Assembly: GCF_044324875.1 (NCBI RefSeq) | Contig: NZ_CP172185.1 | DNA: 64,000 bases | Origin: Escherichia coli | GTDB lineage: Bacteria > Pseudomonadota > Gammaproteobacteria > Enterobacterales > Enterobacteriaceae | Direction: 5' to 3' (one strand) | Part shown: in pieces, positions 3,305-57,673 of the stretch | Position numbering within the stretch: the first letter of the stretch is position 1 | Layout: every line of letters starts with the position of its first letter | The notes under the pieces: generated by a model | Databases searched by the model: none | Told to the model about the DNA's origin: nothing | The model's input: the letters and a program-made list of their open reading frames with translations, nothing else | Program-made: the position numbers and the translations under genes

Positions 3305-3381
3305 GCGTTCATAGCTCAGTTGGTTAGAGCACCACCTTGACATGGTGGGGGTCGTTGGTTCGAGTCCAATTGAACGCACCA
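3305..3381 (+). tRNA. valV: tRNA-Val (GAC)
   Basis: GCGTTCATAGCTCAGTTGGTTAGAGCACCACCTTGACATGGTGG...CGCACCA; cloverleaf with GAC anticodon and CCA end. Confidence 0.93.
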
Positions 3382-3385
3382 TCCT

Positions 3386-3462
3386 GCGTCCGTAGCTCAG
3401 TTGGTTAGAGCACCACCTTGACATGGTGGGGGTCGGTGGTTCGAGTCCACTCGGACGCACCA
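3386..3462 (+). tRNA. valW: tRNA-Val (GAC), tandem copy
   Basis: GCGTCCGTAGCTCAGTTGGTTAGAGCACCACCTTGACATGGTGG...CGCACCA; 4-nt spacer after valV. Confidence 0.93.
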
Positions 3463-17395: not shown

Positions 17396-18663
17396 CTTGC
17401 ACCTCCTGGCAGTCGTTGACCGATTCGGGCCAGCACCTGCTGTTTAAGCCCCTCATCACGCAGTGCTTCCGTCAGTTCAGCAGCAAAGGCGTAGATGATC
17501 ATCTGCTGGGCATCCTGCTGATTGATCCCGCGCGAGCGCAGATAAAACATCTGTTCGTCATCAATACGCCCCACCGTCGCGCCGTGGCTGCATTTCACAT
17601 CATCTGCATAGATTTCCAGCTGCGGTTTCGTATCCACTTCCGCCAGTTTGCCCATCAGCAGATTATTGTTGGTCATCTGACCATCCGTTTTGATGGCGTG
17701 CTGCGCGACGTTGATCAAACCGTTAAATACCGCGCGGCCTTTGTCGCTGACGATAGTTTTGTGCAACTGTCGGCTGTTACAAAAACCTTTATTGTGTTCC
17801 AGCCAGGTACGAGTATCACACACCTCGTTTTTCACCGGCATCGCCAGGCTATTGATCCGCAGCGTGCTGTTTTCGCCATTGAGTTGCGTACTGGTGTTGT
17901 GTCGTAACACTGCGCCACCCAGCAGGAAACTGTGGCTAAATGCGGTGGCATCGTCAGCCAGCAACAAATCGTTATGAGCAAAGTGGTGACTGAGCGGGTT
18001 TTCAAACGCCAGCTTGATATGCTGCAAGTGGGCGTTCGCTGCGACGTTGATAGTGAACCGTGCGCCGGTGAAGTGACGAGCATCATTAAGGCTGACAAAA
18101 TGTTCGATCACCGTTGCTTCGGCACCTTCCGCCAGATCCAGATGATGTCGGTAATGGGCAGTGTTCACCTCTTCACCTGCCACGCCCTGGGTGATATGCA
18201 TTAACAGCAATGGCTTTGCCGGTCGTTGACCGCGCTTCACGACGATATGCGTCACGCTTTGTGCCAGGCTTTCCGTCAAATGCAGAAACACTTCCGCCTG
18301 AATAGCGTCGGGTAACCCCTGGCGGTCATCGTTAATGCTCACTTCATATCCGCTACCTTCAGTTGCATCGCTCAGTGCTGACACGTAACGTCCATCGACA
18401 AACACCAGCCGCACAGCGTCTAACGTTAACGCTAAGGCATCTCGCTGCTGTGGGGATATCTCTCCCGCAATGCAGACAAACTGGCTATTGGTCAGCCCTT
18501 CCAGCGGCGTATATTTCCAGTTTTCATGTTTCCGTGTCGGCAGTCCGGTACGCAGCAATTGTTGTAAATGCTGCTGTGCTTGCGGGGAGCGTTTTGCACC
18601 CTCGGCTTCAAACAAATGATGCCACTGTTGCAGCGCGTTACTACTGTTCGGTAAGCCAGCCAT
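17392..18663 (-). CDS. sufD: Fe-S cluster assembly protein SufD
   Basis: 423-aa ORF beginning [18 protein letters not shown]. Confidence 0.9.
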
Positions 18664-19384
18664 AACCCTGCTCCTCCAGTTGTTTGACCAACGTGAAATC
18701 TCCGGATTTCACAATTCGTCCCTGATACAGCACATGGACGTAATCAGGCTTGATGTAGTCGAGAATGCGTTGGTAGTGCGTAACAATGATGAATGAACGC
18801 TTGCCGTCACGCAGCGAGTTCACGCCATCGGCAACCACTTTTAATGCGTCAATATCCAGCCCGGAGTCCGACTCATCAAGAATGCATAACTCCGGTTCCA
18901 GCACCGCCATTTGCAAAATATCGTTGCGCTTTTTCTCGCCGCCGGAAAAACCAACGTTTACCGAACGGGTTAATAAATCCTCCGGCATCTTCAGGAGAGC
19001 GATTTTCTCTTCCATCAAATCCTGAAAATCAAAGCGGTCGAGCGTTTCCTGGCCGCGATAGCTGCGCACCGCATTAAGTGCCGTTTGCAGGAAAAACTGG
19101 TTACTGACGCCGGGAATTTCCACCGGATACTGGAAGGCCATAAAGATGCCTTCACCTGCACGATCTTCCGGCGACAGCGCAAGCAAATCTTTGCCTTTGA
19201 ACTCAACTGCGCCGCCCGTCACCTCATAATCTTCTCGCCCGGCAAGCGTTGCCGATAAGGTACTTTTGCCAGAACCGTTTGGCCCCATAATGGCGTGAAC
19301 TTCGCCGGGACGAACGTCGAGGCTTAATCCACGCAGGATAGCTTTATCTTCCACGCTGACGTGTAAATCTTTAATACTTAACAT
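18641..19384 (-). CDS. sufC: Fe-S cluster assembly ATPase SufC
   Basis: Walker A GPNGSGKST and ABC signature; overlaps sufD start. Confidence 0.9.
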   Translation of the reverse strand: MLSIKDLHVSVEDKAILRGLSLDVRPGEVHAIMGPNGSGKSTLSATLAGREDYEVTGGAVEFKGKDLLALSPEDRAGEGIFMAFQYPVEIPGVSNQFFLQTALNAVRSYRGQETLDRFDFQDLMEEKIALLKMPEDLLTRSVNVGFSGGEKKRNDILQMAVLEPELCILDESDSGLDIDALKVVADGVNSLRDGKRSFIIVTHYQRILDYIKPDYVHVLYQGRIVKSGDFTLVKQLEEQGYGWLTEQ

Positions 19385-21539: not shown

Positions 21540-21610
21540 AAATAAGAAAACCCTTAAGTCTGTGCGACACAGGCTTAAGGGTTTCTACCCCATCCGGCGC
21601 TTATCTCCGG
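21540..21610 (-). ncRNA. rydB: small RNA, probably RydB, with its terminator
   Basis: Minus-strand hairpin aacccttaag...cttaagggtt followed by a U-run between sufA and ydiH; identity from remembered synteny, boundaries approximate. Confidence 0.35.
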
Positions 21611-21806
21611 CACTCTCAGTGGCTTAGCTCTTGAAGGGGCGATAAGAATAATCTCATAAAGCTAACCCGCCGTTTTAACACAAACTGCGATTAGTATTAT
21701 TTTTGAACAATATCAGGCGGGTAGATAAGCAGTATTAAGAAGGTCATCGAACCTGGACGGAGGTTAATCCAGGTCGATTTGGCGAAATTGCGGCATTAAG
21801 TCAGGA

Positions 21807-27244: not shown

Positions 27245-27349
27245 ACGGTTATAAATCAACTTATTGATTTATAAGCATGGAAATCCCCTGAGTGAAACAA
27301 CGAATTGCTGTGTGTAGTCTTTGCCCATCTCCCACGATGGGCTTTTTTT
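27245..27349 (+). ncRNA. rprA: RprA small regulatory RNA
   Basis: ACGGTTATAAATCAAC...CCCATCTCCCACGATGGGCTTTTTTTT matches the RprA sequence as remembered, including its terminator. Confidence 0.9.
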
Positions 27350-27487
27350 TAACATTTTTCCGCTTCGCTATCTCGCCCCTCACTCTTTCCAATAATGTTG
27401 CACAAGATACTGTGACTCTCTTCAAGCCGTCAGCAGGCTGATAATGTTATTTATATTTTATTGTTTATTTCATGCAGCCATTACACG

Positions 27488-52025: not shown

Positions 52026-52080
52026 GGTATCCGTTCTGCTGAAGTGTCATGGCGTTGATTTTACGGTGACTCTTCGACAG

Positions 52081-52108
52081 TGAAAAGAAAAAAGGCCGCA
52101 GAGCGGCC
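52081..52108 (-). terminator. rho-independent terminator (minus strand) between prophage gene 52215..52610 and btuC
   Basis: Minus strand reads ggccgc tct gcggcc followed by ttttttcttttc. Confidence 0.55.
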
Positions 52109-52214
52109 ATAATTGCAATCAAAAATCAATAATTTAAATACTTATCAATCACTTAAGAACACATTAAAATACAAGCAACCACGCAAAACGACGTGAATGT
52201 GGTCACTTTGTGGA

Positions 52215-52610
52215 TCATTCGTCCCCTTCTTTCTCTTTGTTCTGTTGAACGCTAATTGCGACACACGTAGCAATCAAATCTTTACATTTCTCCATATCTT
52301 CTGTCTTGCGCAACTTGATGCTTGCCACCGATTGTGGATTATCCGCTGTGGCACAATGCATTGTTATTTCAATGTCGTTTCGATGAAAGAGTCCCATAAT
52401 AGCTTTTGCAACCTCCGTCCCTTTTTCCGCGATATCAAAGATCAAAGCAAGTTTATACAAAATATCACCAGAAAAACACTCAACCCTGCTAAGACCAACA
52501 TCACATAATGAAAAATATTGCTCAACGTCCCCCTGGAGTTCGGGAGCACACACAATATCTATTTTTCCGTACTGGCCTGAATAAAAGTCACTATTAACTG
52601 TTTTTTTCAC
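52215..52610 (-). CDS. hypothetical protein coupled to the 3' end of int (unknown function)
   Basis: GTG at 52610 preceded by a perfect AAGGAGG SD; start overlaps the int stop by 17 nt (track ORF begins at an upstream TTG, 52631). Visibly AT-rich relative to flanks. Confidence 0.6.
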   Translation of the reverse strand: MKKTVNSDFYSGQYGKIDIVCAPELQGDVEQYFSLCDVGLSRVECFSGDILYKLALIFDIAEKGTEVAKAIMGLFHRNDIEITMHCATADNPQSVASIKLRKTEDMEKCKDLIATCVAISVQQNKEKEGDE

Positions 52611-53595
52611 AACATCCTCCTTCTTCAGCAATTGGATTAAACCTCACCGCATCCTGCAAATAATCCGGTGCAAGATGGGCATAAATCATCGTTGTCTGAA
52701 TCTTTGCGTGCCCCAGAATTTTCTGGAGCGTCAGAATATTGCCGCCGTTCATCATGAAATGACTGGCGAAAGTGTGGCGCAGCGCGTGAACGGCCTGCCC
52801 GTCAGGAATGGAAGGGGCAACCGCTTTTATCGAATCGCGCACCAGTGAATAATCCAGCGCCGGAAATACCAGCTTTCCGCCCCGTTTTTTAATTTTGTCA
52901 AACAGGCTTTCAGAAATTGGAACAGTCCGGTTTTTACTGTTTTTGGTTCTGGAAAATGTGATCCGGGAATGCAGAACGCGGCGCTGTTCAAGTGCCACCA
53001 CCTCACCCCATCGCGCCCCGGTAGATAAAAGAATTTCAGTAGCTAGCCGTTCGTCGGGATGCTCTACCAGAACGTCAAGCAGCTGGAGGCACTCCTGCCT
53101 GTTCAGATACCCCATTTCGCGCTCGCTGACCTTCATCCCTTTCAGTCCGCTAACAGGGTTATCATTCTGGAAGTGACCGGATGAGATGAGTGCGGAAAAC
53201 ATCGCGCTAAGCGCACCAACCTCGCGGTTTATGGTACTTGGCTGAATCCCCTCCTCCGCTCTTGCCACGCGTAATTCCGTTAACGTGGTGGCGTTGACGT
53301 TGTTAACACGCGGATCCCCCATCGCTTCACACACGCGCTGTAATTTGAGGCGTGTGTTCCACCCCGATTTCATCAGTTGCCCGTGAAACTTCCACCATAA
53401 TTCGATAAGTTCGGACAACGAACGGCGATCGGTCGGCGCACTGTTCCATGCGTTATTTTGGTGTTGAGCTAAAACCCAGCGTTCGAACTGGATAGCCTCC
53501 GACTTTGTTTTGAACTTTTTACGAATGCGTTTACCTTTGCGCCCATCAGGACGCATATCAACCATGTAGCCACCAGGGATTGATTTTATGCTCAT
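52594..53595 (-). CDS. int: tyrosine-type site-specific integrase (P2-like)
   Basis: C-terminal HALRHTFASHF...LGHAKIQTTMIYAHL catalytic region; start set at MSIKSIPGGY. Confidence 0.9.
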   Translation of the reverse strand: MSIKSIPGGYMVDMRPDGRKGKRIRKKFKTKSEAIQFERWVLAQHQNNAWNSAPTDRRSLSELIELWWKFHGQLMKSGWNTRLKLQRVCEAMGDPRVNNVNATTLTELRVARAEEGIQPSTINREVGALSAMFSALISSGHFQNDNPVSGLKGMKVSEREMGYLNRQECLQLLDVLVEHPDERLATEILLSTGARWGEVVALEQRRVLHSRITFSRTKNSKNRTVPISESLFDKIKKRGGKLVFPALDYSLVRDSIKAVAPSIPDGQAVHALRHTFASHFMMNGGNILTLQKILGHAKIQTTMIYAHLAPDYLQDAVRFNPIAEEGGCCEKNS

Positions 53596-53644
53596 TGGCA
53601 TACCCCCAGCGTCACAAGCCCACCGTGCCCCCAGCGTTCCATAA

Positions 53645-53953
53645 TCAGCCGTGCAGTGTGCCAGTCTTGCGGACTTTTTGAGAAGGTGATGTGCTTTCTG
53701 GCCCATCAGGGGAGAGAGTCGGGCTGATCTGCCCAGCAGCCTCGTTTGTTTTTCCCGTCATGAGCCAATTCATGTACTTAAAAAAACGAGGATGATTAAC
53801 AATCTTGACGAGAGCTTCGCCGCCGACATTCTCAATCCGACCTGTCTCATAACGGCGTAGAGTACCGATAGGTACATCAATCAGTTCACAAAACTCTTCA
53901 CGCGTTAACCCTTCCGACTCACGAATTACTCTGATTTTTTCACCAATAAACAT
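53645..53953 (-). CDS. P2 C-type immunity repressor
   Basis: 102-aa HTH protein immediately upstream of and co-oriented with int, divergent from the early operon. Confidence 0.7.
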   Translation of the reverse strand: MFIGEKIRVIRESEGLTREEFCELIDVPIGTLRRYETGRIENVGGEALVKIVNHPRFFKYMNWLMTGKTNEAAGQISPTLSPDGPESTSPSQKVRKTGTLHG

Positions 53954-53975
53954 TGACAGTGTTCCTATCAGTACA

Positions 53976-54018
53976 GTATTCTTGATTTCAAGGTGTACTT
54001 ATAAGTACACAAGAATAC
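53976..54018. promoter_or_regulatory. operator/promoter region between repressor and early operon
   Basis: Perfect 18-bp palindrome GTGTACTTATAAGTACAC (53993..54010) flanked by gtattcttg / caagaatac; TTGACA at 53954..53959. Confidence 0.6.
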
Positions 54019-54050
54019 AAATAGCCACAGACTGGAAAGGTTACCACATC

Positions 54051-54329
54051 ATGACAAAAGTCTTGAACACATACGGGGAGACGGACTTCAACAAGCTGGC
54101 GGCAATGTACCCCTACCGTGATGAGCATGGACTGCCAGTTCTTGAGGAAAGCCTTGAGGACTACGCCAAACGAACCAATCAAGCCCTGAACACTGTTAAA
54201 AAACAGGTCGACAGAGCGCAGATCCCTATAAATCAGCATAAAAAAGGCGGGAAACGCACAGTAAATCTCTACGCAATTTTTCTGAAAACCATCATAAACG
54301 CAGAGAAATATGTACTCATGACGAAATAA
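54051..54329 (+). CDS. first early-operon gene in the Cox/Apl position (putative small DNA-binding regulator)
   Basis: 92-aa ORF from the ATG at 54051 with ggaaagg RBS; function by position only. Confidence 0.5.
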   Translation: MTKVLNTYGETDFNKLAAMYPYRDEHGLPVLEESLEDYAKRTNQALNTVKKQVDRAQIPINQHKKGGKRTVNLYAIFLKTIINAEKYVLMTK

Positions 54330-57131: not shown

Positions 57132-57454
57132 GCAATCACCATGTACACACAAAAAAACCGCTTGCAACAACAAACCGGAACAGGGTACGCTTCCCCCGCA
57201 CCTCATAAAGCGGGTGCCGGGTTTCGCAGCCTGCTGACTAGCAAAGCGCACAACCGCGCCAGCGGTTTTTTTGTGCGTACTGTATTGCCACGTCTTTTTC
57301 GCATCAGAATTATGGTGGGGCGTACGGGGCCGACTTCGGTCGGGCCGGTTTCTTCGTTTGCCGGTGTTGAGAACCCCGTACGTCTCGCCACCCCGAGATT
57401 CTCAACTCTGGTTGGTGAGTATCCAAAAACTCACAAACGAAGAGGCCAAACACC

Positions 57455-57673
57455 ATGGCAAACCGCAAACAGCGCCGCGCTATCGCTGCGCAGCGTCACA
57501 TCCAGACCGAAATCAACCGCAGACTCTTCCGCGCCCACAACATCGCGCGAATCATGCACGCCAACATGCTGCATGAACGCAGTAACGCGTTATCAAACCT
57601 CTATTCCGCTTCCGTTTTCAGCTATCTGGCGGACGACCTGCGCGAGCTGCAAGACCTCATTAACCAGCACTGA
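57455..57673 (+). CDS. hypothetical protein
   Basis: 72-aa ORF with aagagg RBS. Confidence 0.5.
   Translation: MANRKQRRAIAAQRHIQTEINRRLFRAHNIARIMHANMLHERSNALSNLYSASVFSYLADDLRELQDLINQH

Follow-up and report, generated by a model that had tools for sequence, protein, structure and literature searches.

In the switch region of this Escherichia coli prophage, the neighboring P2 C-type repressor most probably shuts off the early promoter Pe by way of two operator sites, and the 18-bp palindrome GTGTACTTATAAGTACAC would be the downstream one, O2. A sequence-only reading of the same DNA had put forward this one palindrome as a candidate operator that could define the immunity of the prophage. That proposal gains support from the conservation of the site beside homologous repressors and from the way in which it tracks the repressor recognition helix, but the operator is very probably bipartite, being made up of O1 (53959-53976) and O2 (53993-54010). 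Positions are those of the window, i.e., the whole stretch of 64,000 nucleotides that was analyzed. The operator function is ordinary and the type of switch is already known; the notable departure from that kind of switch is the dyad symmetry of the operator, which is of moderate specialist interest.

Organization of the Locus

The palindrome had been placed between a divergent repressor and an early operon, and this location was borne out, as positions 53954-54050 are exactly the 97-bp spacer that separates, in the list of open reading frames, the repressor (minus strand) from a cox-like gene (plus strand). The genes concerned are the following:

52594-53706, minus strand: integrase gene, 3' of the repressor gene (maximal ORF; Pfam Int_N and Phage_integrase)
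53645-53953, minus strand: immunity repressor of the P2 C family (102 aa, helix-turn-helix, recognition helix IGTLRRYET)
54051-54329, plus strand: cox-like gene, the first of the early operon (ORF of 92 aa)

Judged from its sequence, the 102-aa protein belongs to the P2 C family of immunity repressors. It matched HTH_31/HTH_3 in Pfam and PHROG 147 (E 4.5e-31), and its residues 3-98 aligned with the P2 C structure 2XCJ/2L49 over the full length (E 3.8e-15). The C proteins of P2, Wphi, L-413C and SEN5 are 38-54% identical to it (38.5% for P2 C and 39% for Wphi C), 54% being its top match among deposited phage genomes. The repressor gene opens a leftward operon in which a P2-type integrase gene comes next, and the true start of the latter is probably internal to the maximal ORF. 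The product of the cox-like gene matched PHROG 575, "Cox-like excisionase and repressor" (E 2e-6), and PHROG 11533 (E 1.5e-47), and gave a weak BLASTP match of only 25 aa to P2 Cox (E 2e-4); a Pfam search with the 92-aa protein returned no match, Phage_Cox included.

A 685-bp segment spanning repressor to cox was 100% identical in a prophage of NZ_OY754371.1 (E. coli F374), a complete P2-like element adjoining btuC that encodes a gpA-like replication endonuclease, portal, terminase, GPO scaffold, P2-family capsid and other P2-type genes. The RefSeq annotation of this genome backs the integrase call for ORF 52594-53706. It was the only complete E. coli genome with an identical switch. The two prophages are not colinear to the left of the integrase gene: positions 52026-52640 of the window and 17658-18975 of NZ_OY754371.1 (locus L001) differ by about 724 bp between btuC and the integrase gene, an interval holding one ORF in the window (52215-52631, PHROG 14142) and two hypothetical genes in NZ_OY754371.1. 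The window therefore derives from a different strain. Ordinary E. coli chromosome (the ydiO-btuC region) surrounds the prophage, with host RNA genes at 3305-3462, 21580-21640 and 27245-27352 (two tRNA-Val(GAC), rydB and RprA).

Additionally, an antirepressor module resembling P1 immI and P4 epsilon was located within the early operon of this P2-like prophage. It consists of isrK (57198-57272, 64.7 bits) and a C4 antisense RNA (57308-57395, 79.2 bits), both on the plus strand, followed directly 3' by an ORF of 72 aa (57455-57673) that matched the Pfam "Derepression protein family" (PF25738, E 1.9e-8) and whose homologue is named "derepression protein" in RefSeq. Through this module, the C repressor may be subject to an additional level of control.

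The Palindrome, Its Second Copy and the Early Promoter

The spacer and its left border contain the following elements:

53953-53958, plus strand: -35 hexamer of Pe, TTGACA, overlapping the repressor start codon (CAT, 53951-53953)
53959-53976: O1, an imperfect copy of the palindrome, GTGTTCCTATCAGTACAG, both a direct and an inverted repeat
53977-53982, plus strand: -10 hexamer of Pe, TATTCT (TAnnnT in all lineages)
53993-54010: O2, the perfect palindrome GTGTACTTATAAGTACAC, at about +4 to +21 of Pe as predicted
53976-53984 and 54010-54018: private inverted repeat with 9-bp arms, GTATTCTTG and CAAGAATAC, probably not functional

The palindrome was confirmed as perfect over 18 bp and loop-less, and no other loop-less palindrome in the 64-kb window is as long. 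By itself it is unremarkable, because a first-order Markov model puts the expected number of palindromes with 9-bp arms at 0.31 per 64 kb, and at least one occurred in 28% of the simulations. Its significance comes from its placement in the spacer (at the same Markov rate, the chance of a 9-bp-arm palindrome within the 97 bp is about 5e-4), from the second copy and from conservation.

This second copy, O1, was missed by the sequence-only reading. It lies upstream of O2, 34 bp away from start to start, and occupies the 18-bp spacer between the -35 and -10 hexamers of Pe exactly. The motif GTGTNC-N6-GNACAC, with at most one mismatch allowed, matched the 64 kb at O1 and O2 only, and the 12 kb of prophage that the window contains held no further, distal copy of the operator. 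O2 is self-complementary at 18/18 positions, O1 at 10/18 here and at 14/18 in most relatives. Two substitutions in O1 are private to this prophage, 53969 A>C and 53976 C>G, relative to the GTGTTCCTATAAGTACAC of the E. coli (89%) and Salmonella relatives; they bring the self-complementarity down to 10/18 and leave four mismatches to O2. They may result in weaker repression or in more spontaneous induction.

Pe (TTGACA-18-TATTCT) matches the consensus at 10 of 12 positions and is the sole good sigma-70-type promoter of the region, with a predicted start site at about 53989-53990. The TTGACA that the palindrome had been said to overlap is indeed present, but the palindrome is off both hexamers and begins 11 bp 3' of the -10. 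The "extended flanking symmetry" that had also been claimed corresponds to the separate 9-bp inverted repeat, which is absent from all relatives and is centered at 53997, 4.5 bp off the center of the palindrome at 54001.5. Since it is off-center and not conserved, this repeat is not part of the operator.

To the right of O2, the plus strand carries phased (A/C)(T/C)ACA motifs (ATACA at 54015-54019, CCACA at 54025-54029 and CCACA at 54044-54048) with spacings of 10 and 19 bp, and the 89%-identity E. coli class has such motifs at identical spacings (TCACA/CCACA/TCACA). These are possible Cox-protein boxes or elements of the repressor promoter, Pc.

Conservation among Repressor Lineages

The site was sought both by its own sequence and independently of it. 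An exact scan of IMG/VR for the 18-mer gave 45 contigs, and in 38 of them a repressor homologue (68-100% identity) was directly adjacent and a copy of O1 was present. In the other seven (L002, L003, L016, L019, L028, L036 and L045) the 18-mer fell inside long unrelated ORFs encoding ...RVLISTP... or ...GCTYKYT...; these matches lie in coding sequence by coincidence and are not operators. For the palindrome-independent sample, repressor homologues with identities of 82, 73, 68, 68, 66 and 65% were taken from the protein database (from Salmonella, Yersinia, Edwardsiella, Klebsiella and Providencia) and their loci were fetched. Both O1 and O2 were found in all six lineages. A DNA-level search of the phage collection gave essentially nothing, with one 80-bp match.

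Eight diverged lineages from six genera (E. coli, Salmonella, Klebsiella, Yersinia, Edwardsiella and Providencia), whose repressors are 65-100% identical, were aligned. The mean pairwise identity of each segment was as follows:

Start codon and -35: 0.97
O1: 0.85, with 12 of 18 columns invariant
-10 of Pe: 0.71, with TAnnnT invariant
DNA between O1 and O2: 0.41
O2: 0.93, with 13 of 18 columns invariant
27 bp to the right of O2: 0.27

The sequence-only reading had named a lack of conservation in phages with homologous repressors as grounds for rejecting the operator, and the palindrome withstood this check: it is kept beside homologous repressors in six genera while the spacer DNA around it has diverged. 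The O1-O2 spacing is 33-34 bp in all eight lineages, and Pe is the best-scoring plus-strand promoter, at the identical position, in 8/8. The dyad of O2 is perfect in six of the eight; in Yersinia (GTGTTCTTATAAGAACAC), the mirror positions 5 and 14 have changed as a pair, so that the dyad stays perfect and is extended to 22 bp. O1 retains its right arm, with AGTACA invariant, and has a degenerate left arm in which GTGT-C is kept. The cox-like proteins of the carriers of the site are merely 37-74% identical.

These data bear on two readings in which the repressor plays no part. The first supposes either that the Cox-like protein or some host protein binds the site, or that the palindrome arose by chance and has no function. 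The expected number of such palindromes per 64 kb and the exact 18-mers within unrelated ORFs of seven viral contigs are in keeping with chance, which is nevertheless ruled out by conservation together with duplication. As to another binding factor, Cox and Apl proteins bind phased direct repeats and not dyads (PMC7498355, PMC3936717), and the presence of the site follows the recognition helix of the repressor (see below) rather than the poorly conserved cox-like gene. The 97-bp spacer contains no LexA box either, and direct SOS control of the region was accordingly dismissed. Taken together, this first reading is very improbable.

In the second reading the palindrome functions as RNA, forming a hairpin in the repressor mRNA leader or at the start of the early transcript, with a role in stability or in sense-antisense control. 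The predicted Pe transcript does fold into a 7-bp stem with a 4-nt loop at the palindrome, and the double substitution in Yersinia keeps the RNA stem as well as the DNA dyad. Nevertheless, the folding is unremarkable (z -1.43), and a stronger fold on the minus strand needs the private inverted repeat, which the relatives lack. The palindrome was also rejected as a terminator, since there is no T-run, and no intrinsic terminator was found in the spacer region. Furthermore, O1 is conserved at positions that break the pairing and lies in the untranscribed spacer of Pe, and a hairpin would leave the correlation with the recognition helix of the repressor unexplained. An RNA function is very improbable, and a DNA operator for the C repressor is the preferred reading.

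The Recognition Helix Tracks the Sites

The recognition helix of P2 C comprises residues 31-39 (P2 numbering), as determined by alanine scanning (PMC2995052). In every repressor that accompanies O1 and O2, the corresponding helix 3 reads GT[L/M]RRYET, and homologues of at most 60% identity have different helices and different repeats. Among viral loci selected through the protein, both sites were present in 20/20 with GT[L/M]RRYET and in 0/53 with other helices, although the 20 former loci are nearly identical and the independent sample is really of about eight lineages.

Three repressors with the helix GTLKRYET, one residue off (viral contigs L084, L090 and L091), adjoin a related, shifted dyad, GGTACTTACAAGCACC, and their spacers have no GTGTAC-N6-GTACAC sites. 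These loci may be a natural intermediate in a switch of specificity.

Dyad Symmetry versus Direct Repeats

C-family operators were described as non-palindromic direct repeats in all seven immunity classes then known (PMC2995052), and the use of asymmetric direct repeats by a symmetric dimer has been called puzzling (PMC2995052, PMC4752584). The characterized members P2, P2 Hy dis and Wphi read direct repeats (PMC2995052), and symmetric recognition at the present sites is an extrapolation.

It is conceivable that the repressor recognizes nothing but an asymmetric element occurring as a direct repeat, such as the shared right-hand 11-mer TA(T/C)AAGTACA(C/G), with specific contacts from one monomer per dimer, as proposed for P2 C, and that the symmetry of O2 is incidental. 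The published descriptions of the P2, Hy dis and Wphi operators (PMC2995052, PMC1904268) are in line with this, as is O1, with its invariant right-arm AGTACA and a left arm unlike that of O2. On the other hand, the perfect dyad of O2 has been maintained among lineages whose repressors are 65-100% identical, the mirror positions changed together in Yersinia, and the left-arm GTGT-C is invariant in O1 and O2 alike. The symmetric P2 C dimer, moreover, superimposes (RMSD 1.9 A) on P22 c2 in complex with its palindromic operator (PMC2995052), and strong dyads recur in the spacers of other C-family members. Reading of a direct repeat alone is, for these reasons, unlikely, and recognition of each dyad by a repressor dimer remains the favored interpretation.

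The wider family was compared in the same respect. The spacer dyad beat 95% of shuffles in 10 of the 22 helix-3 classes, P2 and Wphi not being among them. In the GT[L/M]RRYET subfamily, the perfect dyad measures 18-22 bp across the six enterobacterial genera. Near-perfect dyads of 14-22 bp were also seen at the O2 position in L051 (L-413C), L052, L062, L099, L124, L126 and L138, and some of these other dyad-bearing classes are from Klebsiella. The L-413C dyad TGGAACCTATATAGGTTACA has a second copy, CCTATATAG, 34 bp away, and the spacer dyad of L124 is GGTTCATAATTATGAACC. It can be suggested, tentatively and with somewhat more doubt than confidence, that the C family mostly uses dyad-symmetric operators and that the asymmetric half-sites of P2 are a degenerate, derived state.

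Proposed Mechanism

In the preferred model, each 18-bp dyad GTGTNC-N6-GNACAC would take one repressor dimer, and helix 3 (IGTLRRYET) of each monomer would enter successive major grooves. With O1 in the spacer of Pe and O2 on about +4 to +21, two dimers would exclude RNA polymerase from Pe. By analogy with P2 and Wphi C (PMC1904263, PMC1904268), binding to O1 and O2 is probably cooperative and accompanied by DNA bending. The cox gene and the early (replication) operon would thereby be silenced and lysogeny kept, and the lysogen would be immune to any incoming phage carrying the same operators.

Silencing of the strong Pe would also relieve a weak, facing Pc from convergent transcription, for which P2 provides the precedent. 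Pe and Pc face each other in P2 and Wphi, with transcripts overlapping by about 35 and 82 nt, respectively (PMC1904263), and by analogy the two promoters are probably face-to-face here too, although the genes are divergent. A consensus promoter scan of the region gave no match for a minus-strand Pc. A position-weight scan of the eight lineages yielded two candidates, both weak:

54067-54062 (-35, TTCAAG) and 54043-54038 (-10, TAACCT), minus strand: Pc candidate 1, 18-bp spacer, low confidence
54057-54052 (-35, TTGTCA) and 54034-54029 (-10, CAGTCT), minus strand: Pc candidate 2, 17-bp spacer

Leftward transcription from Pc is predicted to start at 54022-54031, and from either candidate, the convergent transcripts would overlap by 33-42 nt. 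The TAnCCT of candidate 1 recurs in all lineages, but its conservation is confounded because the same bases, read on the other strand, form the cox ribosome-binding site, AGG(T/A)TA. A -10 within O2 (TATAAG) was also considered for Pc and dropped, as it lacks a conserved -35. Since Pc was not located, the model takes its autoregulatory component from analogy.

Comparison with Known Switches

The sequence-only reading had recommended a comparison with the operators of P2, 186 and related phages. The layouts of P2 and Wphi matched the present one, whereas 186 is not the relevant comparison, as its CI belongs to a different repressor family. The 186 switch relies on a two-domain CI of about 190 aa and on cII (PMC1904263, PMC3448106). 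A 186-type (CI/Apl/CII) switch was rejected here, the repressor being a C-family protein of 102 aa with no CI-type match.

The closest layout is that of Wphi, whose C operator consists of two repeats, TATTGGTGAC, that are 34 bp apart and flank the -10 of Pe, as here (PMC1904268). In both switches, O1 is in the promoter spacer and O2 downstream, and a TTGACA -35 is found at the start codon of C, which it abuts in Wphi and overlaps here. The Wphi repeats are 10 bp long and described as non-palindromic, whereas the present sites are 18-bp dyads with a perfect O2. O1 of Wphi has a weak dyad character (6/7 arm positions paired) and O2 of Wphi has none. The recognition helices also differ, LGTVKNYES in Wphi and IGTLRRYET here.

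P2 shares with this prophage the leftward int-C and rightward cox arrangement and, according to the annotated P2 genome, the overlap of the -35 of Pe with the C start codon. Its two operator repeats, GTTTAGAT, are likewise located in the promoter spacer (O1) and after the -10 (O2), but 22 bp apart instead of 34. They are 8 bp long and non-palindromic (PMC2995052), in contrast to the 18-bp dyads, and the P2 spacer has no significant dyad. Pc has been mapped in P2, while here there are candidates only. Thus, as in P2-type switches, Pe carries two repeated sites that flank its -10; these are direct repeats, but each is itself a dyad. The dyads lower the case for an operator of the same type as that of P2, not the case for a switch that works like that of P2.

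A dyad site matching a symmetric helix-turn-helix dimer is shared with the lambdoid operators (P22 c2, 434 and lambda cI). The P22 operator is also 18 bp long. The lambdoid switches, nevertheless, have three adjacent operators and back-to-back promoters, against two sites 34 bp apart here, and the 102-aa repressor, unlike theirs, has no separate C-terminal domain for oligomerization or RecA cleavage. No family membership was apparent at the sequence level. Directly repeated palindromic sites are also found in C.Esp1396I, which binds them cooperatively with one dimer each and has been cited as a structural neighbor of P2 C (PMC2995052). Its sites are 15 bp apart from center to center, versus 34 here, and it is the controller of a restriction-modification system, i.e., a different biological system.

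Implications for Immunity and for the C Family

The two sites and the helix GT[L/M]RRYET would together represent an immunity specificity so far uncharacterized, since the operator sequence is absent from the literature searched and the best phage repressor match is 54%. Immunity classes I-VII are reportedly defined in Karlsson et al. 2006, which lies outside that search. The immunity determinant would be GTGTNC-N6-GNACAC, present twice at 33-34 bp, plus the helix GT[L/M]RRYET. Cross-immunity is predicted within this class of prophage, which is carried by about 114 of 5,426 complete E. coli genomes, E2348/69 included, and also with the relatives in Salmonella, Klebsiella, Yersinia, Edwardsiella and Providencia, despite the limited identity of their repressors (65-89%).

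With regard to the C family, the "direct repeat" rule may, as these data suggest, have been drawn from atypical members. A close homologue with a perfectly symmetric site would offer a simple comparison system for the puzzle of the symmetric dimer, and, if the family does mostly use dyad-symmetric operators, this repressor-operator pair would be the obvious choice for obtaining the co-crystal still missing from work on P2.
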